A stretch of 62,569 bases of DNA, counting the filler. It is 10 parts of 10 records of this genome, joined end to end, with 100 filler letters (N's around TTAATTAATTAA, not from the genome) between each part and the next. Parts side by side here need not be neighbours in the genome. Positions count along the whole stretch, not along the records: positions 11,839 to 18,649 come from SRR31147125_296658; 9 more parts are not named here. The stretch is one strand, 5' to 3'. Position numbers and translations under genes: made by a program. Shown one piece after another: positions 3,454-56,637 of this stretch. The notes under the pieces were generated by a model. The model had not been told where the DNA came from and made no database searches. It was given only the letters and a program-made list of their open reading frames with translations. The stretch's first letter is position 1, and every line of letters begins with the position of its first letter.

Positions 3454-5455
3454 AATGTGGAGGCTAAGAACGCTCCTCCAGTCTTGCCAGACGCGTCATC
3501 CTTCTCACTCTTCCACCACGGTTCACTTGGGCTTTTCACGACAGCGGAACCTTCTTCGATCATTGCAAACAAACTGAAGAGGACGAAGAAGAGGAAGAGG
3601 AAGAGGAGGATCGTCAGATGACACATCGTTTGTTAATCTGTACGCACCTTTCATAGGGGTAGATCGAAGACGCGTGCCCGTCGCTCCATGTGATAGCCAC
3701 AGCGTAGTTGCCCATGGGGCGGACATCCGTTGCTACGATCGTCTCCTCCACAGATCCCGGATCAAGAAGTGGAGTACCTACACAACAGAAAGTGTGTAAG
3801 GCCACCAACCGTCTTGCATCCCGTTCGGCAGCACCTGTGAACTCCTCAACACATGAAGCACATCGACACGCACGTCGCACTGCAGCTGGGCGAAGTACAA
3901 CGGATTCGGATCCATCCCTGTGCAAAGAAGATCCGTCACAGCTCACCACCATCTCGACGAACACGACACAACAACCTGCGATCGATGACAAGGCCACGTC
4001 CTTCAACGGGTGCAATGTAGGGTGGAGTTACAGCTCCGTGCTGCAATCGTGCAACTTCACGCACAACAGCACGGGCCATATCCATGTAGATCTAGCGTAC
4101 TGCGAGTGGGTGTACAAACACATTTCCCGTGTGGCGGGGGGTACCTCAGCAAGCGGAGAGTCTGGCATCTCTAGTACCACGGGATGTCCCGCATCGCTGT
4201 GTTGTGAGATGAGGGCGTCGATGGGAACTTCAAATCTGTTCGTTCACAACATGGTGGGTTTGCGGAAACAGCGGAAACACACAGAGAGGATGAATTCTCA
4301 CGCATTCTTCATGCCGAATTGATGAATAATTCGCTCCGCAGCCCCACGTCCAAATGGATAGTGCTTCTTTTGACACCTACACAGCACGAATGGGAACGTG
4401 CTCGCTCGTTGTCGTTACCCACCAACGTACCCATCACACACAAAGTACGACATATTCTCCACGACCGCAACTGTGGGAACTTTGAGTCGGTGGAACATTT
4501 CGATCCCCTGAATGCCCACGTCAAGACAGACCGATCGCTGCAGTGATCGGTTGGTTACCTTTACAACATCCACGAAAGCCTGTGATCCGAATTCCACTGT
4601 TAAAGCACACACCCAACGCGGTTCCACTAGGACACGTACCAAATTCTGAGGAGTGGTGACAATAACAGCCGCCGTGAGAGAGACAAGTTGGCAAAGGGTC
4701 AGCTGTGTATCTCCTGTACCCGGAGGGAAGTCAATCACTAAATAGTCCAACGGACCCCAGTCGGTGGTGGTCAGAAGCTGGACATTCCTGTGTCGTGAGT
4801 GAACATGACACACATTGATCACTCCTACCTGGGTTAACAGATTGGATACCATGGGACCCCGCATAATCGCAGGGGCGTGGCTGTCGTTGTGTGCTAAATA
4901 AAGTACAAGGTTGAACCACGCACCGCTTCGCTCCTCCCTCATCCATACTGACCTTGTACATGTCCATATGACATTAGTTTCACTCCTTCGTGTTCATGTG
5001 GTGCGATCAGGGCTCCGTGGCTGGTAAGCTGTCTCGAATCACGAATCATTAGGAATCCTTCTCAACCTTCTCAAGAACAGAGGGCCGTACCGTGGAATCG
5101 TTCACATGGACAAGAGTGGGAAGAGAGGGACCATAGATATCCGCGTCAAATAACCCCACAGAACCTCCTGGGGAACACGTGAACACAGATAGGGAAACAA
5201 ACCATACACACAAAACCCTATCCTACCTAGTTCTGCAAGAGCGTAGGCAAGATTTACTGCGCATGTCGATTTACCTACACCTCCTTTGCCTAATGATGGA
5301 AGGGTTGGCAAAGAATTCCCAGAATCCCAAAGAACCCAAAGAAGACACAACGCAACAACTTGCCACGGCAATGATATTCGCCACAGAATCAAGACCCGGA
5401 CCATGACCTGTACGTGCTTGCGGGGTTCGTGCCGAGAGTGTGACGTTCACCGCTA
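3411..5455 (-). CDS. HCF101: HCF101-like Fe-S cluster scaffold (Mrp/NBP35 P-loop NTPase plus C-terminal DUF971/GBBH-like domain); 5' truncated, many introns
   Basis: Exons [18 protein letters not shown] (deviant Walker A), [42 protein letters not shown] and [11 protein letters not shown] are followed by DUF971 motifs [15 protein letters not shown] and [25 protein letters not shown]. Confidence 0.85.
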
Positions 5456-5474
5456 TCATTGGTGTGTGTGTGTG

Positions 5475-5574
5475 NNNNNNNNNNNNNNNNNNNNNNNNNN
5501 NNNNNNNNNNNNNNNNNNTTAATTAATTAANNNNNNNNNNNNNNNNNNNNNNNNNNNNNNNNNNNNNNNNNNNN
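5475..5574. other. Artificial contig linker N44-TTAATTAATTAA-N44. Identical linkers at 11739-11838, 18650-18749, 24702-24801, 31803-31902, 40396-40495, 45854-45953, 50974-51073 and 56436-56535.
   Basis: Nine identical 100-bp spacers with stops in all six frames. Genes are cut at them. Confidence 0.98.
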
Positions 5575-11695: not shown

Positions 11696-11838
11696 CTAAC
11701 CTCCTATCGTGGGCACACACACACACACACACACACACNNNNNNNNNNNNNNNNNNNNNNNNNNNNNNNNNNNNNNNNNNNNTTAATTAATTAANNNNNN
11801 NNNNNNNNNNNNNNNNNNNNNNNNNNNNNNNNNNNNNN

Positions 11839-14800
11839 CCCCGACGCTGAGGGTCTGCTCCACGTGTATGTTCTACTCACACCTACAAAGCGGACGGAAC
11901 ACGAGGCACAAACGATTGCCCGTGTGTGGAGTCGGGAAGGTGTGGAGGTGGTGTCGGTTTCCTCTGTGAAACTTGTGGCACACATACGGGGAGACGACGT
12001 GGCCTCGGCGGTCACCTGGTTGGCAGAACGCCCCGAAGTTCGTTGGATCGAACCCCAAATGCCAATGTCCCTTCAGAACGACGTGGCCGCCCCTCTTGTC
12101 CAAAGTGGCACGGGAACCCTGAATTCCATGCATCTGCGTGGTTTGGATGGATCCAATCAAGTTGTGGGGTGTGGGGATACAGGAGTTGACTGGGATTCAT
12201 GTTTCTTCAATGACTTGTCGGAGCCTATTCCCTTCAATTCTCATACACAAGTCAAACAGATCAGTCATCGGAAGTTCACAACATACATAACAGCGTTTGG
12301 AGATCGTGGCGATGTTGCAGCGGGACATGGTACTCATGTTGTGGGGACGATTGCTGGGGACGCCATAGATGAGAACGAGGGACTGAGTAGGGCTGCATCG
12401 CGGTACAATGGAATTGCACCAAAAGCCAAGGTCGCATTCTTCGATATCTCTACGGGAGAGGGATTGAATGTCCCTGATGACTTGCGTGCTACCTACTTTC
12501 CACCCACCTTTGAGGCTGGTGCACGGGTGCATTCCAACTCGTGGGGCTGCTACTCACCCGAGGACCCCTCGTTTTGTAATGTCTATTCGACATACTCAAT
12601 GGAAGTCGATGCGTTCATGTACGACCACCCGGACTTCTTGGCCCTGTTCGCCGCGGGGAATGATGGGGAAGCGGGAATGGGGACAGTGATTTCTCCGTCT
12701 ACAGGGAAGAACGGACTCTCAGTGGGAGCCAGTCAAACCACAAACGTCCACTTTGCAGACATCTACGACAGGATGCTGGATTTCGAACACATTGCCCACC
12801 GTCTTCAGGATCGCTTCTGCACAGACCCTGACGTGTACAACAGCGAACACATTTGCGGAGAATTCGGGCTTGTACCCCCGTGTCCGAGTCTCCGAGACCG
12901 TCTCTGTCGTGAATTCAACACATCGGATGCCTGTTGCAAGTACTCCTTTTCCGAGTTTTCCTGTTGTGCCTCATCCCTTCAGGAGGATGTGCGGGATCAT
13001 GCTCTTTGGTACAACGAACACAACTTGGCCTACTTTTCCGCACGGGGACCCGTTCGAAGCGATTTGCGTCGAAAACCCGATTTGGTTGCTCCTGGAGCGT
13101 TCCTTGTCTCTGCACGCTCGGATGGAGATGTATCCACCAATCAATGTGGGGCTAGATTTCAAGGAGACACGGCCACCCTCACCGTCAAGCAGGGGACATC
13201 CATGGCAACACCGGCCATGGCGGGTGCTGCTGTTTTGGTTCGGCAGTACTACGTGGATGGAATGGGAATTCATCCCAAAATGCTTCCTTCAGCGGCCCTT
13301 GTCAAGGCAACACTAATTAACAGTGGAATACCTCTTACGGGCCTTGTGGATGCGACTGGAGGGCGGCACAAGTGGGATATCTTGGAGACACCACCCTCCT
13401 ATCACGAAGGATTCGGAAGGGTGCAGCTGGACAACGTTTTGGCTTTTGAAGATTCGGATTTCACGATGAATATCCTCGATCGCAGACCCATTTCTGCGGG
13501 AGAGATTCACCGCCTCTGTTTTTCCGTGCCGCATGCTGCACGACACGTGAAGATTACAGTCGCATGGACGGATCCGCCGGCGGATCCTGTGTCCAGTGTT
13601 TCCCTTGTCAATGATATCGATATTGTTGTCGTCGAAGAGAGTGGCCGCGAGATTCGAAGCAATGGACAGGAGTTCTGGGACACGGAAAACAACGTTGAAC
13701 AAGTTCACATGGACCATCCCCAGGAGGGTGTGTTTAACTTGATCATTTCGGGGAGCAATATTCCTCTGGGCCCGCAAGAGTATGCCGTGGTCATGACGGG
13801 AGACTTCAATCTGGATGTAGAATGCCACAGCACCTGCCCGCTCTATTGCAGCAAGCGTGGTGATTGTGTCGATGGTGTGTGTCACTGCTTTGATCGCTTC
13901 CTGGGACCAGACTGCGGATTTTCCATGTGTCCAAACGACTGTAGCGGACATGGAACGTGCAACATGGTTGAGGGAGTATGCGATTGCTACTACCCCTACT
14001 TCGGAGACGATTGCTCGGATAGCTGGAAGCAGGAAGTCAACACGGCCGTTCCCCAACAACCAGCAGTACCCGTGCCGCCCTCTTCAACCTCCTCGCACCA
14101 ACGCACGATCTTTCTCCGTTCGGGTTCCATCAATACACTCACAACACCCGACATGCGCGAGAATCCCATGCGAGCCAATTCGATTCCGGAGCGCGGTTTC
14201 TTCCTTGTCCACATGAGGGGCCCTGTCACGTCATCATCTCGGGCAAGAATTGAGACGGCGGTGGGCATGAACGTGCATCACTACCTTCCTCACAATACGT
14301 TTGTCTTCTATACGACGGGTGAGGACATCAAGAAAACGTTCTACCACCCCGATGTATTGTGGGTGGACATTCTACCGCCTTCCAGCAAGTTGGCACCCGA
14401 ACTGGAGCATTTGGAGGTGTTAGCCCTGTCTCCCGCCGATCTCATGGGCCACAACAATCGTGATACACTGGTATCGTTGCTCGGCGGACGACCGCAACAC
14501 ACATCCTCTCCTCGTCCTTTTACTCTCTACGCCCTCCTCTCGGGTCATGCAGACATCCTAGCGTCTCAGTGGTCCAAGGGGCATCCTTCGGACGATGTCG
14601 TTCTACGTGCTGCCTCGTCTTCAAAGCTCGTGGCCCTTGTGGACGGAGATGCCGTCCGGGCACGAAACGTTGCGGTATGGTTGTCGGAACAGCCCGAAAC
14701 GTACTGGGTTGAGGTACGATCCAACATTCAGACGATGAATCGTGCTGCAAGCTGGATCATTCAAAGTGATACTCCCGAGTTCAGACCGCTATGGGACCGA

Positions 14801-17800
14801 GGGATCCAGGGCGACGGGGAAGTTGTTGGCTGTGGAGACACGGGTGTCGATACGGATGCCTGTTTCTTCCACGATGTCAATCGTGCCATACCCTACAACA
14901 TTATCGACGACGTGCACAGGAAATTCACAACCTACTACACTGCGTACGGCAACTACGGCGACTTCTATGATGGACACGGCACCCATGTGGTCGGTTCTGT
15001 GGCGGGAAGGGTTATGGATGGAGCACATCCCGAAACATCGGCATTCGATGGAATGGCTCCCCGGGCCAAAATTGCCTTCTTTGATATTAGTGGCGATGAG
15101 GGCGGACTCAATGTTCCGGATGATTTGAACGAAGGCTACTTTCCCGTCAGCTATGCCGCCCATGCACGTATTCACACCAATTCATGGGGGTGTTCCTCCA
15201 TCTTTCCCTCTCTTTGCAATGTTTACAGCACAAGTGCCATGGAAGTTGATCAGTTCACTTATGAACATGACGATGCCCTTATTTTGTTTGCTGCGGGGAA
15301 TGCGGGCGAGGCTGGATGGGCAACTGTCGCCTCACCCAGTACAGCCAAGAATACAGTGTCCGTGGGTGCCAGTCAAACATCGTTCAAACATTTCGGGGAG
15401 GCGGAACACAGCAAGGATTATGCGGCACTGGTAGACGAAGTACGTGAGATTCTGTGTGACGAGGGTCAGCTGTACCTCTCGGATTCTTTTTGCGAATCGT
15501 GGAATCGTACGGCCCCCTGTGCAGACTTGCAAGCCGTATTGTGTTCCAATTTCACAACTGTGGAAATGTGTTGTGCAAGTACCCTGACCAGGACCATTTG
15601 TTGTCCGGAGTGGCTTGAGGCCGAGGTGAACAATCATCCATTGTTCTATAACAGAGCAAACATGGCCTTCTTCTCTTCACGTGGACCAACGTACGATACG
15701 CGTATCAAGCCTGATGTTGTGGCACCGGGCTCTCTGGTTGTGTCGGCCAAGAGTGATGGCCGAAATGACACCTTCCAGTGTGGGATTGATCCCACTGCTG
15801 AAGATGCAGCCATTCTTACCATGGAGGGGACATCCATGGCCACTCCCGTGACTGCAGGTGCAGCCGCCTTGGTACGACAGTACTTCCGCACAGGATTCTA
15901 TCCAGGTGGAGTCCCGAATGAGAATGATGCATTGGAACCATCCGGTTCTTTGGTGAAGGCTGTTCTCATTAACAGTGCAACTTCTCTTGAGGGCGTGCTC
16001 GATTTGAACGGCGAGGCCCATCTGTGGCATGTTCTGTCAGGTACAACACCAAACTTCCTCGAGGGCTTTGGCCGTATCCAACTCTCCAATACGCTCCGCT
16101 TTTCCGATTCGTCGTTCTCCTTGCACGTTCGGGATCGTGTTGCATTGGAAACAGGGGATCAAGACAGAGTGTGCGTACGGATTACGGATCGGGAACCACC
16201 GTTAAAAGTTACTCTGGTGTGGACGGATCCTCCAGCCTCTCCATCTGCTGAAATCAGCCTGATCAACAATTTGGACGTACTTGTTGTAGACAGCCAAGGA
16301 TGGGAGTATCGCAGTAACTTTGGAATGGAGTTTGACGATGTGAACAACGTTGAACAAGTCATCCTGACCGATCCACCCCTGGGGGAGACCTTTGCTATCC
16401 ATGTTGGAGGAATCAGTGTTCCCCTGGGTCCCCAAGCCTATTCTCTCGTTATAACAGGTTCCTTTGAACTCACAGACGCGTGTCCCGTTGCATGTCCCTT
16501 CTATTGCACCGCCAGAGGACAGTGTGCTGAGGGGATCTGTGTGTGTTCTGAGGACTCTTCGGGTCTGGATTGTTCCTTGAGTAGGTGCCCCAACGATTGC
16601 TCCGGTCACGGCTTCTGCGACGTGATCTCAGGATCTTGTTCGTGTGATGACGGCTGGACTGGTGTAGACTGTTCAACCTATATCCCCGTGTGTGGCGACG
16701 GATTGTGTGGAAGTACAGAGAATTGCACGTCCTGTTGGCCAGATTGTGGAATCTGTGCCCTGTCTTGTGCCGAGGACGTGATATTGGAACCCCAGGACCC
16801 CTTGTTCACCCTTCAGTGGCACCTTCACAACGTTGGACAGACAGGTGGTAGTGTTGGAAGTGATGTTCACATTCTACCGGTCTGGGAGCACGGTTTTACG
16901 GGCGACAGTGTTCAGATCTGTGTTGTGGACGAAGGAGTGCAACGGATTCACCCGGACTTGATTTGCAATTATAGTCCTCTTGGCAGCTACGATTTCAACG
17001 ACGACGATTCGGATCCGTCACCCTTACCAGGAGCTGGACACGGAACATCTGTAGCAGGCGTAGCAGCTGCCCGGGATAACACCTTTTGTGGTGTGGGAGC
17101 TGCATTCCGTGCGAACATCTCTGCTATACGTCTGATCGGAGGACCGTCAACGGACGCCATGGAGGCCAGCGCCCTGTCATACACCATGCAAGTCAATGAC
17201 ATTTACTCCAACAGCTGGGGTCCGGCGGATTCAGGATCATCTCTTGTGGGTCCAGGCGAGTTGACACGAGAGGCTATCCAGCAGAGTGTAGAAGAGGGTC
17301 GAGGTGGACGGGGTGCCATCTTCATGTGGGCTGCGGGAAATGGTCTCGAGAATAGTGACAATATCAATTATGATGGCTACGCCAACTCTCGTTTCACGAT
17401 TGCAATAGGTGCCACGGACCACAACGGAAAGCAGTCGTGGTACAGCGAGCCCGGGGCCCCCATGCTCGTGAACGCACCGAGTAGTGGTGACAGTACTGGA
17501 ATCACCACAACGGATCTCGGCGGTGAGGATGGCTACAGCGATGGGGACTGTACATCGGATTTCGGGGGTACATCGTCCGCCACTCCGTTGGCTGCCGGTA
17601 TTGTAGCCCTCATGCTTCAGGCAAATCCCGCCCTTGGCTGGCGTGATGTTCAACACATTCTTGCCATGACAGCGGAAAGGAATGATGGCGTAGATGAGGA
17701 TTGGGAGGTGAACGAGGCGGGATTCCACGTGAATCACAAATACGGCTTTGGTCGAGTCAATGCAACAGGTGCCGTGTCCCTGGCCCAAGTGTGGGTGGCT

Positions 17801-18649
17801 TCGTGTGAAGTTCAGAACGCTAGCTCTGCACTTCTCCTTGTCTCGAACGGGACCATCCCCGACTACGATGAAACGGGTGCATCGTTTTTCTACAGCATGA
17901 AGGAGAACATTCGTATCGAGCACACCGAAATTCGGTTGACAATTCGTCACACGTGCGTGTGTGTTGTGTGTACGTGATGGCCTTATCTCAATCTACGTTC
18001 ACAGGTTCCGTGGAGATCTCTTGCTTGCATTGGTGTCACCTGCCGGAACATACAGCATGCTGGCAACACCCCGTTTTGATAGCGGAGACGATTATGATGA
18101 CTGGACCTTTACGTCCGTGCGACATTGGGGAGAATTTTCTCTCGGAGTGTGGCAGTTGATTGCGCTGGATGCCGCTGCGGGAGACATCGGAGAGCTTGTG
18201 TCCTGGGAACTTACGGTGTACGGTACCTCGCCCTCGTGTACGTTTGGACTTGATGTTCTGAACTCAACGTGTGGAGATGGACTTTGTGTTGCAACAGAAG
18301 ACTGTGTGATCTGCCCCCAGGATTGCGGTTCTTGTCCTGGTCTATGTGGAGATGGCGTTTGTACTTCTGCCGAGACGTGTGAGTCGTGCCCCAATGACTG
18401 CGGACTCTGTTTCTACGAGTGCAATACCGGTCCACTCTCTCTCTACAACATTAGTGATGTGTTGTTTGGGGATCAGTGGCACTTGCAGAATACGGGTCAG
18501 ACAGGCGGAGCGCCAGGAGCAGACATTCACGTTGTTCCTGTTTGGTCGCGAGGGATCTATGGAACGGGTTCCCAAGTTACTGTTGTGGATGACGGCGTTC
18601 AGTACGTGGGGCGTGCATGTGTTTGTTTGTTTGTGTTTGTGTGTGTGTG
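11839..18649 (+). CDS. Giant secreted/surface multi-subtilase: [KP-43/TagC-like S8 + beta domain + EGF]x2 - Cys repeat - kexin-like S8 + P domain - Cys repeats - second kexin-like S8; truncated at both ends
   Basis: 2037-aa ORF plus a second exon after the intron at 17953-18004 (restores the P-domain motif HTFRGDL). Catalytic D/H/S motifs: GDTG 12176, HGTH 12326, GTSMA 13199; GDTG 14837, HGTH 14975, GTSMA 15833; VDEG 16928, HGTS 17039, GTSSA 17573. A fourth module begins DQWHLQNTGQ..VVDDG at ~18470-18600. Confidence 0.9.
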
Positions 18650-18774
18650 NNNNNNNNNNNNNNNNNNNNNNNNNNNNNNNNNNNNNNNNNNNNTTAATTA
18701 ATTAANNNNNNNNNNNNNNNNNNNNNNNNNNNNNNNNNNNNNNNNNNNNCACACACACACACACACACACACAC

Positions 18775-19060
18775 CCGCGGGGCTCTCGTCTCCTGCAGTC
18801 TCCAAGTCCCACACAAGAACACGATCCGAAAACGCGGCGACGAGACGCGCGTCGTCCACACCCCCCAATGCCAGTGCTGTCACGGGTCGTTGCCCTCCTT
18901 TCAAGAGGAGAGCCTGGGAGGGATCACGGTCGGCAACGTCCCATACGGCGAGAGTGTTCCCCACGGAAGGGACCACAAGGAACCGCCCGTTAAAGGCGAG
19001 ACAGGATGGGCCAGGACGAGCTTCCTCAAAGAAGCGCTGTACATGACCCCGCCACACCAT
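18775..19060 (-). CDS. First exon of a WD40 protein, WDR27-like (3' truncated)
   Basis: LAVWDVADRDPSQALLLKGGQRPVTALALG..LVAAFSDRVLVWDLE resembles the WDR27 N-terminus. The exon ends in a GT-repeat intron at the contig edge. Confidence 0.55.
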
Positions 19061-24626: not shown

Positions 24627-24826
24627 AATCATGACGACCACGCATTGCGATGGAATGGCACTCCCACACTCTCCGTTCCCTCACAACTCGTCCTTGACTT
24701 CNNNNNNNNNNNNNNNNNNNNNNNNNNNNNNNNNNNNNNNNNNNNTTAATTAATTAANNNNNNNNNNNNNNNNNNNNNNNNNNNNNNNNNNNNNNNNNNN
24801 NTCTCTCTCTCTCTCTCTCTCTCTCT

Positions 24827-27800
24827 CTAAATCAGAAGCTGCAGGAACCATATCCTCAATCCTTCGGGATACATGCGCTCCTTGTCCCACAGGCTATGAA
24901 TGTCCCGTTCCGGCCGCGGGCCCGCAAGCATGCGCATCGGGTTACTATTCTCTCGAAGGCACTGTAACAGGATGCTCACCTTGCCCTGCGGGACATGCTT
25001 GCCCACCTGGAAGTGGTGTGCCAACCTTGTGTACCAGTGGTAGGCTGTGCATGTAGTACGAGCGTGTTGCCACTCTTATGATTTCCTTGTGGATTAGGTG
25101 CCTATGCGGGAATCGGTGAAGCAGAGTGTATCGCTTGCCCGGCAGGCTTTTCTTGCCTGGATCCCTCTGCACCTCCCACATCGTGTTCCTCTGGATTCTT
25201 TAGCCTGTCTGGAGGTACGACAGCGTAGGAACACGACGACGACGACGACGTTCGTACAACCTTACCCCTTGCTCGCAGTGGCTTCCTGCTCGGAGTGTCC
25301 TACGGGTTTCATGTGTCCCAATGCGACGGAGGCTCCACAGTCATGTGACACGGGATCCTTTGCAGCCGCACGATCAACTAACTGCACGCCATGCCCTGTG
25401 GGTCACTTCTGTCCCGATACATCCCATGAGCCTCTCGTCTGTCCACGGGGCTACGTCTCCGCAGGATCAACCAATGTATGCAACTCGTGCCCTCCGGGAT
25501 ACGCGTGCCCCGAGCCTCACTTGTCTCCATCACCCTGTAATCCTGGAAGCTTTGCCCCGGGTGGAGCGTTGACGTGTCTCCCGTGTCCGGCTGGCCATGC
25601 GTGTGGAGCCACGGCAGCCGAACCAACAATCTGTCCGGCAGGCACGTTTAGCGCAGCCGAGGCATCTCAGTGTTCTTCCTGTTCTCCTGGATCCTATTGC
25701 CCGACTCCATCCGGAATATCCGAATTCCTCTGTATGCCAGGGAGTTATTCTACAGGCGGAAGTGCCGAATGCACACAATGTCCTGCTGGATACGCTTGTC
25801 CCAACACGTCGGAGGCATTGGAGTTGGCGTGTGCCTCAGGCTACTACTCCACAGGTGGCCAGGAGAATTGTACTGTGTGCCCGGCTGGATTCGAATGTCC
25901 GGCACCGACAGGTGAGCTTCGTACGCCTTGTCGCCCTGGACAGTATGCAGTGGCTGGTTCTCCTGCGTGCACCGACTGCCCAAGCGGTTTTGCGTGTCCC
26001 TATGTAGATCGTGCCCTGGAACAGTCCTGTGCCAATGGAACCTACTCACTGGGTGGCCAGATAGCCTGCACTCCTTGCCCTCCGGGATTTGCGTGTCCTG
26101 TTGCCGACGCGTCTCCTGTTGCATGTGAAGCGGGGAGCTATTCTCTACTAGGCGCCCCAACTTGTACACAATGTCCTGCCGGGTTTGCCTGCCAAGCCGT
26201 GGACAAGGATGCTCTTGTTGCGTGTCCCCCTGGAACCTATTCTCTTGAAGGAGAAATGGATTGTACTATCTGTGATGCGGGCTTCATGTGCAGTACTGTC
26301 ACGTTCGTTTCGTTTGTTTGGGTTTGTGGATTGTGGCGGGTTTCCTGACACATCTCCTCTGTTTCAGTGAACTTCCTACCGAATGTGAAACCGGATACTA
26401 CAGTTTGGGCGGCGCAACGACATGCACGGCATGCCCAGCAGGATTTCAATGCCCTGACGGGGATGCCGATCCTGTTCCATGCGGAGCGGGAACGTACAGT
26501 TCTCCCGCTCAAAGTGGTTGCACTGCCTGCAGCCCTGGGTTCTACTGTCCCGAAGGATCCACATCTCCCACTGCTGTGCCCTGTCCTATTGGAAGCTACT
26601 GCAATCCTTCCTCTGTGATCACACCTTGCCCCGCTGGATCCTTTGGCATCAAGATGGCGGGTGTGAATGAGACCGATGCTTGTACTATATGTCCCGCAGG
26701 AAACTATTGTCCCACGGGAACGGTTCAAGGCGAGCTGGACAATAATGTGTGCCCACGGGGCTATTACTGTCCCGAGGGAACACAGAGTGCCACACAGTAT
26801 CCGTGTAGTGCAGGAACGTACAACGAAGACGTGGGACGCTTTGTTGAGGAACATTGTATTCCCTGTGAAGCGGGGCACTATTGTCCCGAGGGAAGCGAGC
26901 ATTCCCGTCTGGCGTGTCAATACGGCCACTATTGTCCTCCTGGTAGGCCCGTCCTGGGTTGTGTCGTGTGTTCCCTTGTTGATCCACCACCTTGCGCAGG
27001 GACATCTCGGGCAGATGAATATCCGTGCAGTGCGGGAACGTACTCGGGTCGTGTGGATTACCTTACGGACCAGAGTGCGTGTCGCGGGTGTATCCCCGGA
27101 GCCTATTGCTCCGAGGCAGCTATTCTTCCTGCCCCGTGCGATGTCGGATTCTACAATCCATACACCAATCGATCCAGCTGTCTCTTGTGTCCGGTGCGTG
27201 CCAGACACAGGTGTCCAGCCTTCCTCTCCTGACGTATGCCATACAAGGCTGGCAATGCGTGCCCCACAACCGGTTTGATCGAGACCGCCACACGCTGTGA
27301 ACCTGGCCATTATTGCCCGCCCGGCACTGTGAATCCAGATGACAACCCTTGTCCGGCAGGAACATACACGAATCGAACGGACGCCACCTCGGAGGAGGAA
27401 TGGTTCGGTTTGCGTACGTCTCACCCTGGGAACAAAATTCTCACATTCTTCTCCACATTTTCAGTGAGATTTGTCCTGAGCGCCTCAAATGCCCGGCCGG
27501 CACAGGGGGGCAGGAAATCTTCCTGAGGCACGCACGCATGATCCTCTTAGAGAGATCGCATTGACTATCATGCCAACAGGAATGCGATCCTGGCTTCTAT
27601 TGTCCAGCAGGAACGCATGATGGCAACATCGAGTCGTGTCCCGCAGGAACCTTTTCCAATCGCACAAACCTTCGTGACGAAACAGGGTGTACACCATGCC
27701 CGGCGGGATACTATTGCACAGGTTCTCAGATAGCTCCTGATGGCCTGTGCAGTGCGGGATACTTTTGTCCACTTGGAAGTGACTCAGCCACCGAAAGCTC

Positions 27801-30800
27801 GTGCCCGGCTGGGACGTACGGGCCAAATGTACGTGACTCCAGGACAAAGGTTCTGTTGCTGAATGTTCTGGCCCGTTGCAGGCGGGACTAGAGTCCGTTG
27901 ATCAGTGTCTTCCATGTCCCCTGGGCAAGTACTGTCCCCTTCACTCCGCCCTGGGAGACATCACGGATTGTCCAGAGGGATCCTACTCCGATCAGCTACG
28001 AACGGAGGAAGTAGGTCCTGGATCCGCATGGCCGTCTTGTATCACATGTCCTGCGGGATCCTTTTGTGTTACGGGGAGTGTGGAGCCTGTTGCATGTGGC
28101 GAGGGACTGTACTCGGCCGCTGGAGCAAGTGACTGCATGGATTGTGAAGTGGGCCACTATTGCAATAGTGCTACAACGACACAGGAAGACATGCTTAACA
28201 ATAGGCGGTGTGAAGCCGGTGGGTGAGACGATGGATAGTGATGATATTGATATGGGTGGTGATGACCTTGTCTTCTTCCTCGTAGGCACTTTTTGTCCCG
28301 TCGGAATGAATCGTGCACCAGATCTCTTCCATGACCCCTGCCCCGTGGCCAAGTATTGCGAGGAAGCCACAGTGGCACCCACAGACTGTGATGCTGGAAC
28401 CTATAACCCTGTAACAGGAATCAAGAGTCAGTCCGAGTGTCTCCCTTGCCCAATGGGATACTATTGCGTTCAAGGTGTGTCGTGCGACCTCCCTCCCGTA
28501 CCGTTGTCCACATTTCTTATCGTCCTCATCCCATTCTTAGGATCGAGTAGCGTTACGGGTCCGTGTCAGGCGGGATACTATTGTCCCGAGGGCTCCGAAC
28601 AAGCCGATCAGGAAGCGTGTCCCGAAGGAACCTACAATTCGCACACGGGCGCCGCGGAGCTGAACGCATGTGCTGATTGTCCGGCTGGATTCTATTGCCC
28701 AACGACCGCTACAGTCACTCCACTCAACTGTACGGCCGGTTTCTATTGTCCCACTGGGACCGAGACTCCAGAGGGATGTCCTCCCGGAACCTTTGGTGCT
28801 TTAAGTGGCGGTCTTCGTGCAGTGGAAGAATGTACCCCTTGCGAGGGGGGATCCTATTGTGCAGGCGGTGATATTGCATCAACGGGAGCTTGTGAACCCG
28901 GTTATTATTGTCTAGCGAGTGCAGCCGTGCCGAATCCAGATGGTTCTGACGAAACCGTCGGCGCACCGTGTCCACATGGTCACTATTGTCCAGAGGGTGC
29001 GTCCCACCCCACCTCTTGTCCTCCCGGCTTTTTCAATGATGCATTGTATGGAACATCCCTGTCCAATTGTCACCCTTGTCCTCCTGGACAGTACTGCCTG
29101 GGAGAAGGGAACACAGAACCAACAGGAGTCTGTGATGCCGGATTCTTTTGCAACGGTACCGCAACGGTTCCCACTCAATTTCCTGCACCTGTGGGATACT
29201 ACTCACTATCCAACGCCTCGATCCCTGCTCCGTGTGCCCCGGGAACATATAATCCGCAAGTAGCTCAATCATCCTGTCTCGAGTGTCCGCGTGGCTACTA
29301 TTGCGAATTACCTGGGACGGACTATCCCTCGGGATGCCCTGCTGGATGGTTTTGCACACCGGGATCTATCACACCCTCGCCGTGTGATAAGGGGAGCTAT
29401 AGTTTCCAGGAGAAGTTGGGCAGTGCGGCAGAATGTCTTGCGTGTGATGCTGGCTACTATTGCAGTGCCACAGCCCTTACAAACGTCACCGGCCCTTGTG
29501 CCGCGGGTTATTTCTGCACGGAGGGGTCATACGAACAAACACCCGTGGCGAGGGCGTTTGGAGATAGTTGTCCGACTGGACACTACTGTCCCGAGGGAAC
29601 GCACACACCCCAACCCTGCCCACCCGGTACATTCTTGAATACAACAGGCAATACAGGGGTAGACGACTGTCTTCCTTGCAGTGGTGGATTCTATTGTGAG
29701 TCCAGTGGTCTGGTCGCCCCCACAGGACCTTGCGCAGCTGGCTACTACTGTCAATCTGGATCGGCCACAGCGACTCCGAGCGGAAATAGCACCAATGGGA
29801 TTTGTTGGACGGGCCATTTCTGTCCTAATGCAACCGATACGCCACAGCCCTGTGCAGACGGATCGTATTCCAATATTGTGGGCCAACAAAGCTGTGTCCC
29901 ATGCCCTGAAGGATTCTACTGTATCGAGGGCACGATTCAGCCTCGCGATTGTGATCGTGGACGATACTGTCCACAGGGTACCGGTTTCGTACAACCTCGT
30001 TGTCCTGCAGCAACGTATAGCGATCGCTACAATCTTGTATCCTCCGATGAGTGCAAGGGTTGTCCCGGAGGCTACTACTGTGAAGTATCCGGTTTAGTTA
30101 GCCCCAGTGGACTGTGTGCACCGGGTTATCGGTGTTCTGGGAATGCGACATCGCGTTACGGAGATGGCGTGTGTGATCCGGGATACTATTGCCCCGAAGG
30201 GAGTGAACAGCAACTTCCATGCCCTGCTGGTACGGTAGCCGAACTCGCCGGCAATTCCAATTTGTCCGACTGCGTCGCATGCCCGGGTGGCCGCTACTGT
30301 CACGCTGCCTCGGCAACACCTACGGGTATCTGTGCCGCAGGCTATTACTGTAATGGCAGCGCCTCAACAGCCACGCCCACAAACGAGTCAGGAACGGGAG
30401 GAATCTGTCCCGAGGGCCATTCCTGTCCCGAAAGCAGCTCGAATCCCGCCCCATGCCTTGCAGGGACCTATCAATCCCAGGAGATGCAATCCGAATGCTT
30501 GCCCTGTCCAGTGGGGTATTACTGCGAAGCAACAGCCTCCGAGTACGTTCCTTGTCCAACGGGCTATTATTGTCCTGAGAATACGACCTATGCACACGAA
30601 TATCCGTGTCCCAAGGGATCTTTCCTTAACAGCACCCAGCGCTCCAGCGCCGATGATTGCATTTTGTGTCTCCAGGGCATGTGGTGTGGCTCGACGGGTT
30701 TGTCTGAACCCAGCGGTACTTGTGATGGAGGATGGTATTGTAGTCAGGGGGCAACGAGTGCACGGCCCGAAGAAGGAGAAAGCGGTGGAACGTGTCAACC

Positions 30801-31802
30801 GGGCGAGTACTGTCCCCCTGGAACGGGTGCCCCGCTTCCCTGTCCTGCTGCTTATTACTGTCTCACGACGCTCCTCCTCGAACCCACGGGCGAATGCTCG
30901 GAAGGATACTACTGTTTGGGCAATTCTCATGAACCAGCTCCCACTGATGGTGTGCAAGGCGATATTTGCCCCCCTGGTCACTACTGTCCTCAGGGAGTGC
31001 CTACCCGCACGTGTGTCCACAAGGGACGTTTACAAATGTTGAAGGCACAACCGATATCGGCTTCTGTACGTTGTGTTTGCCCGGATTCTATTGCAACGAC
31101 ACAGGCCTCTCGAGTCCAACGGCAATGTGTGATCGTGGTTTCTATTGCCCAGCAGGTCGACTCAATCCTCGCGAGAATATTTGTCCTACAGGTCACAAAT
31201 GCGAACTGGGAAGTGCGGAACCCGAACCATGCCCTCCTGGCACATATCAAGACGAAGTTGGCCAGGGAGATTGCAAGTCGTGTCCCCCTGCCTTCTATTG
31301 TCAGTTCAACGTCACCACCCAACCCGCACCCTGTCCACGTGGCTACTACTGTCCAGAGAACACATCTAATCCGTACAGCTTCCCCTGTCCACTTGGTACC
31401 TATAACAATGCAACCCAACAGTCAGATCCCGATGTATCGTGTGTGCCATGTACACCTGGCAAGTACTGTTCAGCCCCAGGGCTAGAAGAACCCCTGGGGG
31501 ATTGTATGGCAGGATTCTATTGCGCAGGGGGTGCAGATCGCCCGACGCAAACTCCATGTCCCCCTGGAGGGTATTGCCCCGAGGGAAGTCCGGCACCCCA
31601 TCTGTGTCCTCCGGGAACCTTCTCGGATGTTGGAAACCTTACGAGCCCGAACGAATGCAAGATCTGTGTTTCGGGTTCTTACTGTAATGACACGGGACTC
31701 ACGGCCCCCAGTGGCCTCTGCGATGCAGGCTTCCACTGTGAAGTTGGATCCCATGTGTCCCAGCAGCTGCCTTGTCCTGTTGGGTCGGCTTGTCCAGCGG
31801 GT
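24827..31802 (+). CDS. Giant Cys-rich repeat surface protein (GCC2/GCC3, ephrin-receptor-like CPxGxYCP repeats); truncated both ends, spliced, one probable sequencing frameshift near 30995
   Basis: Dozens of CPAGYYCPxG / C..C..G.YC units across ORFs 25098-26348, 26288-27232, 27876-28226, 28066-31485 and 30966-31802, separated by short GT-AG introns. Confidence 0.85.
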
Positions 31803-31902
31803 NNNNNNNNNNNNNNNNNNNNNNNNNNNNNNNNNNNNNNNNNNNNTTAATTAATTAANNNNNNNNNNNNNNNNNNNNNNNNNNNNNNNNNNNNNNNNNN
31901 NN

Positions 31903-34918: not shown

Positions 34919-35905
34919 ATGGAACACGCAAACACACATCCCTTCGACCAACTGACCCCCGACTTCATCATGGATGCGGTTGAATCACTCGGCTACCGCT
35001 GCGACTGCCGGATCCTGACGCTGAACAGTTACGAAAACCGTGTCTACCAGGTCGGCATCGAAGAGGAACAACCACTGATTGCCAAGTTCTATCGCCCCGA
35101 ACGCTGGAGCCGCGAGCAGATCCTCGAAGAGCACAGTTTTTCCCAGGAACTGGCCGACCACGAGCTGCCGGTCGTTGCCCCGCTGGTGGATGACAATGGC
35201 GCGACTCTGCACAGGTATCAGGGGTTTTTCTTCAGCCTGTCGCCACGAAAAGGGGGGCATGCTCCCGAGCTGGACAATCTCGAACATCTGGAGATCATCG
35301 GCCGCCTGCTTGGCCGTATCCACCTGATCGGATCCAGACAGCCATTTCAGGTCCGCCCGAAGCTCGACAGTCACAGTCATGGTCACGAGTGTGTTGCCTT
35401 TATCAGTGAACACTTTATTCCGACTGAGTACCGGGAGTCGTATACCTCTTTGACGCGCGATATCCTGCAGCTGATTGATGAACGCTTCAATCGCCTGCAA
35501 GGGATCCACCTCATCCGGACCCACGGTGACTGCCACAGCGGCAACATGCTCTGGCGTGACGGTCTGCCCCATTTTGTCGATTTTGATGACGCCCGTATGG
35601 CCCCGGCTATTCAGGATTTCTGGATGCTGCTCTCAGGCACGGAAGACCAGCAGCGGCTCCAGCTGGATAAAATCCTCAACGCCTATCACCAGTTTTTTGA
35701 TTTCAATCCCCTGGAGTTGCAGCTGATTGAGCCCTTAAGGACCCTGCGGATGATTTACTACGCGGCCTGGCTGGCGCGGCGCTGGGATGACCCGGCCTTC
35801 CCCCGCACCTTTCCCTGGTTCAACTCCCTGCAGTACTGGGGTGAACATATTCTCGAATTGCGCGAACAGATGTCGGCCCTTCAGGAGCCGACACTGCAAC
35901 TGTGA
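34919..35905 (+). CDS. srkA: Stress response Ser/Thr kinase SrkA (RdoA/YihE)
   Basis: LNSYENRVYQ, AKFYRPERWS, IRTHGDCHSGNML, FVDFDD and WLARRWDDPAFP. Confidence 0.92.
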   Translation: MEHANTHPFDQLTPDFIMDAVESLGYRCDCRILTLNSYENRVYQVGIEEEQPLIAKFYRPERWSREQILEEHSFSQELADHELPVVAPLVDDNGATLHRYQGFFFSLSPRKGGHAPELDNLEHLEIIGRLLGRIHLIGSRQPFQVRPKLDSHSHGHECVAFISEHFIPTEYRESYTSLTRDILQLIDERFNRLQGIHLIRTHGDCHSGNMLWRDGLPHFVDFDDARMAPAIQDFWMLLSGTEDQQRLQLDKILNAYHQFFDFNPLELQLIEPLRTLRMIYYAAWLARRWDDPAFPRTFPWFNSLQYWGEHILELREQMSALQEPTLQL

Positions 35906-38011
35906 CCGACCCGATGCCGATGCAACCCCTGGAACAGAAAGCGCTGACCCTGCTGAAGCAGAGCAAGCGCCCCCTTAACCGGCGTACCATCGCCGAGCAG
36001 CTCGGGCTGCAGGGGCAGGAGCGCAAACAGCTGACCCGGACCCTTGAGCGTCTTGCGGCCAAGGGCCAAGTCGAAGAGCGCAAAGGCTTCTACCGCTTAC
36101 CCCCGCCGAAAAAACGGGTCACCGGAACCTTCTCCCTGGCTGAGCGCGGCTTCGGCTTTCTCCGTCCGGACAACCCGGAGCAGGAGGATCTTTTCATCCC
36201 GGCTCGCGAGGTTGGAACGGCGATGGATGGCGATCAGATTGAGGTCAGTTGTCACTTTTCGCCCCGTCAGGGCCGTCCCTTTGCCCGTGTTCAGCGCATT
36301 CTTAAGCGCGCACACAGTCAGCTCCTCGGCCATTACCAGAGCCGTCGCGGCAAGGCCGAAGTCTGGCCGCTGCAACGTTCGCTCGGCGGCCCCTTTCTGG
36401 TCCAACCGGACAAACGTATCCACAACGGTGACGTGGTCAGCATCCGGATCGAGCACTACGCGGATGGCCGGAGGCGGCACGCGGGCAGGTTGTTGAACAC
36501 CTCGGTAAAGCGGACAATCCACAGGTCGATATCGACATCATTATTCGCGATCACGGTTTGCCGCACCAGTTCTCAAGTGAGGCTCTGGACGAGGCGGACA
36601 GGGTCGCCTGTGACATTGATAAAGAGGACTTCGAGGGCCGCACCGATCTGCGCACCCTGCCGCTGGTGACCATCGACGGCGAAAGCGCTAAGGACTTCGA
36701 TGATGCCGTTGCCCTGCGCAAAGAAGCGGATGGACTTTTTCGCCTCTGGGTCTGCATCGCCGATGTCGCCCACTATGTTCAGCCCTTCAGCCCTCTGGAT
36801 CAGGGCGCTCTGGAGCGGGGCACCAGTGTCTATTTTCCCGGTTTCTGCCTGCCGATGCTGCCGGAGTCTCTGAGCAACGGCATCTGCTCTTTGAAGCCCC
36901 ATCAGGACCGCCTGGTCATGACCGCGGAACTGCTGATCAACGCGGAAGGGCAAACCGTCTCAAGCGATTTTTATCCGGCGGTGATCAACAGTCACGCGCG
37001 CCTGACCTACACACAGGTTGCCCTCTACCTGGATGCCCCGGAGGCTTCCGAGCTGGACCCGGAACTGCAGAAACCGTTGGGAGAGATGGCCGAGCTTGCC
37101 TCCATTCTGACCACAATGCGCCACCGCAGGGCAGCCTCGATCTCGATCTGCCGGAAGTCGAGATTGTCCTCGATGACAGCGGCCAACCGATCGACCTGAA
37201 GAAGATCGATCGCCACCAGGCTCACCGCCTGATCGAAGAGTTCATGCTCGCAGCCAATGAGGCCGTGGCCTCTTTTCTCGCTGAATCGGGCCGTTCCTTT
37301 CTCTATCGCATTCATGAGCCGCCCGACATCTTCAAGCTGCAGGATCTGCAACAATTGGCGGCCCAGTGCGGTGTCGGTATGGTCCTCGGCAAAGACCTCC
37401 ATCGCGCCCTCCAGGAATTACTGGATGCGGTCGCAGACAAACCGGAAGCGCGGATGATTCATCAGCACCTGCTGCGCAGTTTGCAGCAGGCCTGCTACAG
37501 TGCGGACAATCGTGGTCACTTCGGCCTCTCCTCCAGCCATTACTGCCACTTCACCTCACCCATCCGGCGCTACCCCGATCTGGCGGTTCACCGCGTTCTG
37601 AAGCAGGTGCTGAAAAAGGAGAAGGGGTCTCAGCCTGGCGGGAAAAAATTGCTCCGCCTGGGACAGGACTGTTCTGACAAAGAGCGGCGTGCCATGCAGG
37701 CCGAGCGGGAATTGATCGCTCTGCGCAGCTGTCAGGTCATGGCCGGGCGCACCGGAGATCGTTTCCACGGGACGATTACATCTGTCACTGATTTCGGTTT
37801 TTTTGTCGAACTGGACGACATCTTTGTCGACGGACTGGTTCACATCCGCACCCTGAATGATTACTTCCACTTCGACCCCTCTACCATGAGCTTGACCGGA
37901 GAGCGGCAGAGACAGAGATTTCAGGTGGGCATGCGGGTGACCGTGCAGGTCAAACAGGTGGAGTTGTGGCGCCGTCGAATCGATTTCACCTTGCTTGAGG
38001 TGCATGAATGA
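35902..38011 (+). CDS. rnr: Ribonuclease R; two apparent single-base frameshifts (~36468, ~37131)
   Basis: HTH and cold-shock N-terminus, TIDGESAKDFDDAV, IADVAHYV, RGTSVYFP, HFTSPIRRYPDL and a C-terminal S1 domain, split across three ORFs. Confidence 0.9.
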
Positions 38012-40395: not shown

Positions 40396-40495
40396 NNNNN
40401 NNNNNNNNNNNNNNNNNNNNNNNNNNNNNNNNNNNNNNNTTAATTAATTAANNNNNNNNNNNNNNNNNNNNNNNNNNNNNNNNNNNNNNNNNNNN

Positions 40496-45772: not shown

Positions 45773-46076
45773 TGTCGGTTACATGGACAACCATTCGTCC
45801 ATGCCGGTCATGGACCGCTCGATAGGCCCGGGGTTGCCATCACCGGGGAAAAANNNNNNNNNNNNNNNNNNNNNNNNNNNNNNNNNNNNNNNNNNNNTTA
45901 ATTAATTAANNNNNNNNNNNNNNNNNNNNNNNNNNNNNNNNNNNNNNNNNNNNGGATAAAAAAGGGAAATCCCGGATCGACGCAATTGTCGGTCCGGGAT
46001 TTTTGCGTTTAGGGGGTAAGAATAGCGCGATATTGTGATGAAACCAAAGGAGAAGTGAAGATGAAATGTGGGGTGA

Positions 46077-50973: not shown

Positions 50974-51122
50974 NNNNNNNNNNNNNNNNNNNNNNNNNNN
51001 NNNNNNNNNNNNNNNNNTTAATTAATTAANNNNNNNNNNNNNNNNNNNNNNNNNNNNNNNNNNNNNNNNNNNNGCTTCATTTGCATCGGTTCGATCGATC
51101 AAATGCATGGAAAGGAGAAAAG

Positions 51123-51989: not shown

Positions 51990-52425
51990 TACAGCATATC
52001 GGCGGGGCGTTTCTGATTCCGTACGTCGTGGCCCTCTTCACCGCCGGCATCCCGATCCTTTCGATGAATTTCTCGGCCTCTCCAGCGGCGCCTGGAAACT
52101 CGATGGCCTCAACTGGTCCGTCGTTGCGGCGGTATTCCTGATCTGGCTGACAAACTGGATAATCACCTACAACGGCATCGAAAAGGGGATTGAGCGGGCC
52201 GTCAAGATCATGATGCCGGTCCTGTTTGCCATCAACCATCGTTATCATCGCCTGGGCCATCTGCCTGGAGGGCGCAGGGAACGGCATTCGCCTGTACACC
52301 ACACCCGATTTCAACAAAATTCGAAACATCGAGGTATGGATCGCCGCCCATGGCCAGATCTTCTTCTACCTTTCCCTGGGATTCGGCATCATGATCGCAT
52401 ACGCATCCTACCTTCCGAAAAAGAA
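51990..52425 (+). pseudogene. Fragments of an NSS/SNF-family sodium:solute symporter
   Basis: GAFLIPYVVALFTAGIP, GIEKGIERAVKIMMPVLF and PDF..EVWIAAHGQIFFYLSLGFGIMIAYASY. Deleted and frameshifted. Confidence 0.7.
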
Positions 52426-52718
52426 AGTCGGGCAGGGCAGTGTTTTTTTCTTTTATCTGCCGGCATCGCAGAAGGCCGTTCACGAGGTCCGCGCCGAATC
52501 CGAACGGCTCGCCATGGGCAGTGAATCGATTCTCCTGGTCCCGGCTTAAACGCATCGATCCAGACGTCAAGGTTCTGCTTTCCAGCGGTTATGGTATTGA
52601 CGGCAAGGCCATTCGTATTTTAAAACGGGGATGCAACGGCTTCATCCAGAAACCGTTCACGGCCAATGTGCCGGCCAAAAAAATAAGGCCGGTTTTCAGC
52701 AAGACTTCGTCCTCGTAA
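52420..52718 (+). pseudogene. Remnant of a hybrid histidine kinase C-terminus (HATPase end and receiver end)
   Basis: VGQGSVFFFYLPAS..GSESILLV and LKRIDPDVKVLLSSGY..GCNGFIQKPF. The receiver's phospho-Asp region is missing. Confidence 0.6.
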
Positions 52719-52736
52719 GTCGTCAATGTATGCAAT

Positions 52737-56435: not shown

Positions 56436-56637
56436 NNNNNNNNNNNNNNNNNNNNNNNNNNNNNNNNNNNNNNNNNNNNTTAATTAATTAANNNNNNNNN
56501 NNNNNNNNNNNNNNNNNNNNNNNNNNNNNNNNNNNAGGACAGATCTTCCAGATATGCTAAGTGGGTAGTTATACTACCGGAAAAGCAACAAATTTACGTC
56601 ATTTTAAACGTTAATGCCAAAACTTCAAACTCATTTT

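Follow-up and report, generated by a model that had tools for sequence, protein, structure and literature searches.

Subtilases (family S8) are the textbook case of proteases that carry one catalytic domain and are matured by means of one cleavable propeptide; in characterised enzymes, a propeptide of the I9 type is removed by the enzyme's own cleavage at the C-terminal end of the propeptide. Here, we describe a gene fragment on contig SRR31147125_296658 that specifies at least four subtilase modules from two S8 subfamilies, S8A (KP-43 type) and S8B (kexin type), one behind the other. The contig occupies positions 11839-18649 of the window, i.e., of the whole stretch of 62.6 kb (1-62569) that was analysed and in which ten contigs of 5.0-8.5 kb are joined by artificial linkers of the form N44-TTAATTAATTAA-N44 (5475-5574, 11739-11838, 18650-18749, 24702-24801, 31803-31902, 40396-40495, 45854-45953, 50974-51073 and 56436-56535). 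It is exactly the third of these contigs, present as a whole (6811 bp) and bounded by a linker on each side, and because of this artificial joining the sequence next to it is uninformative.

Several protease domains per polypeptide also occur in the polyserases (human polyserase-1/TMPRSS9, polyserase-2 and polyserase-3) and in carboxypeptidase D. Unlike the protein considered here, these are animal enzymes with the S1 chymotrypsin fold or of family M14, and they are activated at a short motif and not by the removal of a folded propeptide. The membrane-bound polyserase-1 is reported to give rise to independent protease domains through post-translational processing (PMC1435904). A study on Tetrahymena lists 12 fusions of leishmanolysin with a subtilisin-like proprotein convertase and two fusions of subtilisin-like with teneurin-1 sequences, for which cell-surface processing has been proposed (PMC3143110). 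As far as these descriptions go, the fusions resemble the present case in that a protist joins a subtilisin-like convertase to another protease or to teneurin-type EGF modules; the leishmanolysin fusions differ in having a metalloprotease as partner and in being reported as two-part proteins. A literature phrase search for tandem or multiple subtilase or subtilisin domains retrieved no paper. In the accessible portions of the literature that uses the term polyprotease, the multi-domain proteases are S1 or M14 enzymes, and none of these texts appears to describe an S8 array.

On balance, we lean towards reading the contig as an internal piece of one protist nuclear gene that would encode a giant secreted, probably membrane-anchored and self-processing multi-subtilase.

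Domain organisation of the gene fragment

On the plus strand, the frame that starts at 11840 remains open for 2045 codons and ends at 17977, compared with a mean of 160 and a maximum of 319 codons for the longest frame in 200 shuffles of the contig. Close to its end, behind 2037 codons, lies an intron of the spliceosomal type (17953-18004; 52 nt, GTGCGT...CACAG, phase 2). Removal of this intron joins ...TIRHT to FRGDLLL, restores the frame and yields a P domain that aligns without gaps to the closest relatives (P0135 and P0134). The spliced product of the gene fragment (11839-18649), which we read as an internal part of a single gene, comprises 2237 residues without a stop codon; residue numbers given below refer to it. 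Two KP-43-type S8A units are followed by a CGDGxC spacer, a kexin-type S8B unit with its P domain, further CGDGxC spacers and the start of a second kexin-type unit. A preliminary description of the contig had proposed this order, with at least four modules from two subfamilies in one reading frame, and all elements it listed were recovered on one open frame that is spliced once. The notion of a single reading frame holds for the catalytic parts of modules 1 to 3, while the P domain and module 4 are reached in a second frame via the intron. It is the open reading frame that places at least two catalytic protease domains in one predicted translation product.

The catalytic domains of module 1 (12101-13429) and module 2 (14792-16069) match Peptidase_S8 with E values of 2.6e-37 and 4.8e-45, respectively, and units 1 and 2 share 46% identity over 720 residues. 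Their best match in sequence and fold is with KP-43/SubHal, oxidatively stable alkaline proteases of Bacillus (1wmd, 5fax): 1wmd is the best solved relative of module 1 (E 1e-45), including the C-terminal beta domain, and ranks first in a Foldseek search with the AlphaFold2 (AF2) model of module 2 (E 1.1e-36, TMt 0.82, 29% identity). The motifs DTG, HGTH, AAGN and GTSMATP of the S8A modules align with the same motifs of 1wmd. A full set of catalytic residues is present in module 1 (D113, 12176-12178; H163, 12326-12328; N274, 12659-12661; S454, 13199-13201) as well as in module 2 (D1000, 14837-14839; H1046, 14975-14977; N1154, 15299-15301; S1332, 15833-15835). As in KP-43, a beta-barrel directly follows the catalytic domain, at 13430-13810 in unit 1, where 1wmd is aligned to residue 431 of 434, and at 16070-16477 in unit 2, where an all-beta segment (model residues 687-804) aligns with unit 1. 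KP-43 lacks the Cys-rich insert of about 80 residues that both modules carry between the oxyanion Asn and the Ser; it is helical in the predicted structure of module 2, and in module 1 (approximately 12770-13015) it breaks the 1wmd alignment at query residues 311-392. The two units further differ from KP-43 by predicted tandem I9-like propeptide folds, EGF pairs and the presence of further protease units in the chain. A KP43 cluster that spans kingdoms has been described in a broad S8A survey (PMC6713707).

A pair of EGF domains follows each beta-barrel, as the preliminary description had stated. The first pair (13811-14020) is of the teneurin/tenascin type, with EGF_2, EGF_Teneurin and EGF_Tenascin above cut-offs and teneurin chains matched in the PDB, and the second pair (16478-16675) scores above cut-offs for EGF_Teneurin and EGF_2. 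Over the whole contig, Pfam reports three Peptidase_S8 stretches, EGF_TEN/EGF_Teneurin/EGF_2 pairs after modules 1 and 2, and P_proprotein. The CGDGxC Cys-rich repeats that had been named as separators were located by motif scan: three CGDGxC...DCGxC repeats start at residues 1618, 2127 and 2152. Repeat 1 (16691-16756) alone separates EGF pair 2 from the kexin-type domain and matches no Pfam family at E≤1; repeats 2 and 3 lie at 18270-18335 and 18345-18410. An atlas search with the repeats reached a best score of 0.79, which is not usable. In an AF2 model of EGF pair 2, repeat 1 and module 3, the catalytic domain is predicted with confidence and the first 101 residues have predicted local distance difference test (pLDDT) values below 50, the model being uninformative on the repeat.

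Module 3 (16787-17824; Peptidase_S8 E 6.1e-45) is of the S8B type. It matches Kex2 and furin at E values of about 1e-80 (2id4, 7.3e-81; 1p8j, 1.1e-80), contains the motifs VVDEG, HGTS, AAGNG and GGTSSA, and has its catalytic residues at 16928-16930 (D1697), 17039-17041 (H1734), 17339-17341 (N1834) and 17573-17575 (S1912). The P domain stands directly after the catalytic domain, as in the kexin/furin convertases; its first part closes exon 1 (17825-17952) and its remainder (18005-18257; P_proprotein, PF01483, E 1.2e-18 to 1.2e-19) follows the intron, the gap-free alignment running across the exon junction. Module 4 (18429-18602) is visible for its first ~58 residues only, to VVDDG, and is 48% identical to the start of module 3 over 83 residues; the catalytic Asp (D2233, 18588-18590) is included. 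The earlier proposal of intact D/H/S motifs in the three complete modules is borne out, and for the kexin-type module with its P domain and the start of a second one Pfam, the Kex2/furin matches and the P-domain alignment concur. Both acidic residues of module 3 that align with the Asp of 'PADDG' and 'NYDGY' in Kex2 are kept, and the acidic 'SDDYHGT' residues near the Kex2 His are absent. We take the former two to be the S1-pocket residues for a basic P1, so that a preference of module 3 for basic P1 residues is likely, and the kexin-type units would probably cut after basic residues. Unlike kexin and furin, modules 3 and 4 are placed downstream of S8A units and are preceded neither by a pro-domain with a basic autocleavage motif nor by any match to the S8 pro-domain (PF16470) at E≤1; only CGDG repeats stand in its place. 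This pro-domain was found in 12 of the 12 nearest single-unit relatives of the kexin-type units, in one of them under the Pfam cut-off.

The S8A units are organised differently in this respect. Between unit 1 and unit 2, a Pro/Ser-rich linker of 57 residues (14021-14191) without a stop, hydrophobic segment or dibasic site is followed by two predicted domains with the beta-alpha-beta-beta-alpha-beta order of I9 propeptides, a distal one (14192-14371; model residues 45-104, pLDDT 80-95, no Pfam match) and a proximal one (14519-14734; model residues 154-225, likewise pLDDT 80-95) that ends in ...TYWVEVR. These folds occupy the 240 residues that Pfam leaves blank before module 2. They stem from an AF2 model of the linker plus unit 2 that was based on a 27-sequence alignment (pLDDT 87.5, predicted template modelling score 0.90) and in which residues 227-240, the loop between the proximal domain and the catalytic junction, fall below a pLDDT of 50. 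Foldseek matches include the unprocessed pro-subtilases 3afg, 1r6v and 2e1p, and the 'V.W(I/V)E' strand that ends the propeptide region is kept in the family consensus. An atlas search with the linker returned unnamed bacterial clusters and a single CspB_prodomain lead with a score of only 0.89. In unit 1, the corresponding proximal region (11840-12100) is cut on its N-terminal side by the contig end, closes with ...VRWIEPQ, aligns with its I9-like counterpart ahead of module 2 and gives a weak Fervidolysin_NPro-like match (E 0.15, under the cut-off). Since Pfam is blank on the linker, the propeptide assignment follows from predicted fold and position. With two I9-like domains ahead of module 2, the S8A units look like complete zymogens apart from a signal peptide, i.e., like KP-43-type enzymes with internal propeptides.

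Truncation at both ends had also been proposed, and both ends are indeed contig ends bounded by linkers. On the 5' side, alignment with unit 2 places the contig end within the propeptide-like domain of unit 1, and on the 3' side a second intron (18603-18649, GTACGT donor and a GT-rich stretch) probably begins at 18603, because the kexin motif is lost after VVDDGVQ; the contig breaks off within this intron. Both ends of the gene are, therefore, missing. Pfam detects no ABC transporter domain on the part of the gene that the contig covers; in the Tag proteases of Dictyostelium, which the preliminary description had brought up for comparison, an S8 domain is fused to such a transporter.

Relatives and tandem arrays in sequence databases

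Relatives were collected by an exhaustive HMMER pass against 1.84 billion representatives with a query spanning units 2 and 3, the best 150 of 50182 matches being fetched, and by two word-index searches (near and longer lengths). The resulting set of 272 proteins is dominated by single catalytic domains (135 S8B, 122 S8A and three unclassified). Twelve proteins contain two to five catalytic domains of the same type, namely two (eight proteins), three (two proteins) or five (one protein) S8B domains and, in one case, two S8A domains, and Pfam confirms multiple Peptidase_S8 stretches. A combination of S8A and S8B occurs in none of the 272. A mixed protein of equal similarity would be expected at the head of the HMMER list, where none stands; weaker mixes may fall below the best 150 of 50182. 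The statement that subtilases normally carry one catalytic domain, thus, is true of most relatives and needs qualification for the 12 arrays. Similarly, the suggestion that the architecture has not been described stands, among the 272 relatives, for the mixture of subfamilies and not for tandem arrays of one subfamily, which exist.

Word-index searches with the whole fragment gave no relative that extended beyond a single unit with useful identity: the matches with the highest scores cover 19% of the query, and the widest alignment reaches 42% at 28% identity. A scan of a genome-contig collection, which does not include the present contig, found no relative of the fragment. When the same collection was scanned with P0132, 53 prokaryotic loci were obtained, and none of the 38 S8-matching open reading frames contained two catalytic domains within the 3-kb flanks.

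Among the arrays, P0131 has five and P0147 three kexin-type units, P0132, P0133, P0136 and P0153 have two each, and P0017 from Edaphochlamys debaryana contains two S8A domains. As aligned, the catalytic residues are missing from all five units of P0131 and from P0136 and P0153, and are kept in both units of P0132 and in two of the three of P0147. In P0131 (3332 residues), every kexin-like domain comes with its own P domain and none shows a complete triad: Gly takes the place of the Asp, Glu or Asp that of the Ser, and the His is often lost. Judged by these substitutions, the protein looks like a pseudo-protease array. The database arrays share with the present contig several Peptidase_S8 domains, P domains in between and the lack of pro-domains between units. 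They differ from it in that each consists of a single subfamily, that many have bacterial accessory domains and that P0131, P0136 and P0153 are devoid of catalytic residues. Multi-catalytic proteases and tandem subtilase arrays are known kinds of proteins; the present fragment is unusual, as judged from motifs and predicted folds, in combining S8A with S8B units that all seem to be active, internal propeptides being seemingly kept in the S8A and lost in the S8B units. In public protein sets, multi-subtilase arrays, active and dead, emerge as a recurrent yet essentially undescribed architecture.

Named relatives of the S8A units come from Naegleria, Thecamonas, a cryptophyte, green algae and bacteria, with protists and green algae among those that give the longest alignments. 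In a set of 25 S8A relatives with a single unit, 18 have a signal-like hydrophobic N-terminus, and in 17 the final 13% of the chain contains a 19-mer of strong hydrophobicity. With about 150-320 residues ahead of the catalytic domain, a conserved CC...CC insert and the C-terminal hydrophobic segment, these proteins (P0159, P0160, P0212, P0213, P0230, P0250 and others) look from their sequences like a family of type I membrane ectoproteases. Module 3 is 60-61% identical to its best prokaryote-type S8B relatives among the best 150 of 50182 matches (503 bits, compared with 275 bits for Kex2/furin). Its nearest relatives carry bacterial accessory domains (SLH, dockerin, Big_9, Calx-beta), and those with names are bacteria and archaea. 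The label kexin/furin-like is appropriate insofar as Kex2 and furin are the best solved relatives, yet the module is far nearer to the prokaryote-type proteins.

Processing of the chain and alternative explanations

On the reading that we favour, the protein would enter the secretory pathway and would probably be fixed to the cell surface through a C-terminal anchor encoded beyond the contig, as in the single-unit relatives. Each S8A unit would fold on its own internal propeptide and would then cleave the junction between propeptide and catalytic domain, as subtilases generally do. As the propeptide sits inside a tandem chain, such a cut would at the same time sever the polypeptide between units, turning the product into a self-processing polyprotein. 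The released product would be a KP-43-type enzyme bearing the propeptide of the next unit as a C-terminal tail, and a stub with KP-43-type and kexin-type enzymes would remain. The idea of a secreted or surface array, either tethered or self-processing, had been voiced in the preliminary description; the I9-like folds ahead of module 2 argue for its self-processing variant, while we infer the secreted or surface location from sequence features of relatives. The kexin-type units were considered as the processing enzymes of the array and rejected, as the linkers are free of suitable sites: eight dibasic and three RxxR sites occur in the 2237 residues, none of them in linkers or propeptide junctions.

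Several points weigh against self-processing of an active surface protein. Neither end of the protein lies on the contig, and both signal peptide and anchor are assumed for this reason. Gene continuity and any cleavage are predictions from sequence. The region ahead of module 2 is not recognised as Inhibitor_I9 and matches no Pfam family at E≤1, and the Pro/Ser linker of 57 residues is short enough to be open by chance. Arrays need not be enzymes, since several of the kexin-like arrays in the databases are catalytically dead. Finally, kexin-type enzymes are considered to require a pro-domain for folding, so that units 3 and 4 might lack activity even with intact triads.

The alternative that deserves most attention, possible although we regard it as the less probable course, is a chain that is not severed at all and forms one tethered multi-enzyme array on the cell surface, with the I9-like domains serving permanently as folding, regulatory or spacer domains and with different protease specificities held together on one stalk. 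It would agree with the type I membrane ectoprotease appearance of the single-unit relatives, with the absence of dibasic and RxxR sites from the linkers and with P0132 and P0147, which keep several apparently active kexin-type domains without propeptides between them. The protease-protease fusions of Tetrahymena have likewise been interpreted, in the accessible text, as cell-surface processing machines (PMC3143110). The model of unit 2 argues against permanent retention of the I9-like domains, as it places a disordered loop exactly at the junction of propeptide and catalytic domain. Moreover, I9-type propeptides of characterised subtilases are autocleaved at their C-terminal end, and the enzyme would normally stay inhibited as long as its propeptide is not cleaved off.

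If the self-processing reading is taken one step further, a mixed-subfamily, self-severing polyprotein would deliver, in fixed ratio, a set of broad KP-43-type and basic-residue-specific kexin-type proteases that are activated in an order built into the chain, because each autocleavage would leave the inhibitory propeptide of the next unit on the tail of the preceding one. The kexin-type units would then derive from a prokaryote-type S8B lineage, stripped of their pro-domains, and would fold without a pro-domain in cis or with the help of a neighbour. We put forward this extended scheme tentatively and consider it rather doubtful in its entirety. It nevertheless frames two questions raised by the contig, i.e., whether autocleavage of propeptides that lie inside the chain can double as polyprotein processing, and how a kexin-type domain folds without its pro-domain. 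For protist biology, the contig points to a single gene that specifies a cocktail of surface or secreted proteases.

Both the self-processing and the tethered protein presuppose one gene. An assembly chimera or collapse of separate paralogous subtilase genes, in which case no single four-module protein would exist, appears unlikely to us. Mis-joins would be favoured by the nature of the assembly, which is broken into many short contigs (5-8.5 kb), frequently ending at (GT)n/(CA)n runs, and which draws on at least two organisms. However, the longest DNA shared within the contig amounts to 65 nt at 75% identity, located inside the catalytic domains and away from the junctions, and with units 1 and 2 being only 46% identical an assembler would have had no repeat at which to join paralogues by mistake. 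Every junction is in frame with folded domains abutting. From the S8A to the S8B part, the EGF domain is followed by six residues, the CGDG repeat, about ten residues and then the kexin domain, and since Cys-rich modules fill this junction and the one between units 3 and 4, there is no room for the end of one gene and the start of another. If the units came from separate paralogues, an anchor, stop and start codons and a signal peptide should lie between them, because most of the 25 single-unit S8A relatives carry N-terminal and C-terminal hydrophobic segments; in the 2237-residue product, no stop, start context, signal peptide or membrane anchor was seen between units. The highest Kyte-Doolittle mean over 19 residues is 1.38, and the lack of any higher window speaks against an internal signal peptide or membrane anchor.

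Host group and the other contigs of the window

By gene content and tetranucleotide profile, the window is a mixture of eukaryote-like (contigs 1-5) and bacterial (contigs 6-10) sequences. The former feature split open reading frames and domains of eukaryotic type (WD40, PH, HCF101-like ParA plus DUF971, ephrin-receptor-like Cys repeats), the latter dense bacterial genes (two-component systems, RNase R, cysteinyl-tRNA synthetase (CysRS), Opp-type ABC, TonB receptors, RmlD). The tetranucleotide correlation of contig 3 is 0.73-0.78 with the intron-bearing contigs 1, 2, 4 and 5 and 0.32-0.40 with the bacterial-looking contigs 6-10. Composition, the intron and the EGF domains support the grouping of contig 3 with the eukaryote-like contigs, and the eukaryotic origin proposed beforehand is corroborated by the exact GT..AG intron, the second GTACGT donor, the teneurin-type EGF domains and the tetranucleotide profile. 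It is highly improbable that the contig represents a bacterial multi-domain protease gene with a frameshift, caused by pseudogenisation or sequencing error, and not an intron-bearing eukaryotic gene: half of the window contigs are bacterial, named relatives are bacterial or archaeal and those nearest to module 3 carry SLH, dockerin, Big_9 and Calx-beta domains, but taking out exactly 52 nt with GT..AG borders brings back the frame as well as the gap-free P-domain alignment, the second donor breaks module 4, teneurin-type EGF pairs are present, composition places the contig with the intron-bearing ones, and protists and green algae are among the named S8A relatives that align over the greatest length. 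Other pieces of the polyprotease gene were not found on the remaining nine contigs, where none of 169 open reading frames of at least 110 residues matches S8 or the P domain.

Contigs 1-4 end at (GT)n/(CA)n microsatellites (5450-5474, 11700-11738, 18620-18649 and 18750-18775), the run on contig 3 being intronic, and such repeats seem to be a cause of assembly fragmentation in this eukaryote. The minus strand of contig 1 (3617-5446) carries a gene for an Fe-S cluster factor of the HCF101-like kind that is split into exons for the ParA/NUBPL P-loop and an exon for DUF971/GBBH-like_N. Its best identities are ~46-53%, the few named matches include plant 'HCF101, chloroplastic', and a plastid-bearing protist is a possible host. 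Contig 5 (25098-31802, plus strand) contains very long frames, among them one of 1156 codons (28015-31482), with repeated ephrin-receptor-like/TNFR-like Cys-rich modules; they are probably part of a giant Cys-rich surface protein from the eukaryote that contig 3 belongs to.

Among the bacterial sequences, contig 6 harbours a gene of the RNase R type on the plus strand (35845-38008) that is spread over three overlapping frames, with OB_RNB in 35845-36666, RNB positions 1-169 in 36432-37196 and RNB positions 164-325 plus S1 in 36704-38008. This arrangement suggests two frameshifts, due to either sequencing errors or a pseudogene. On contig 9, likewise bacterial, an isolated frame fragment of a sodium:neurotransmitter symporter (SNF; 52214-52546) adjoins a gene of 1092 codons (52719-55994) for an AAA_16, TPR and BTAD regulator.

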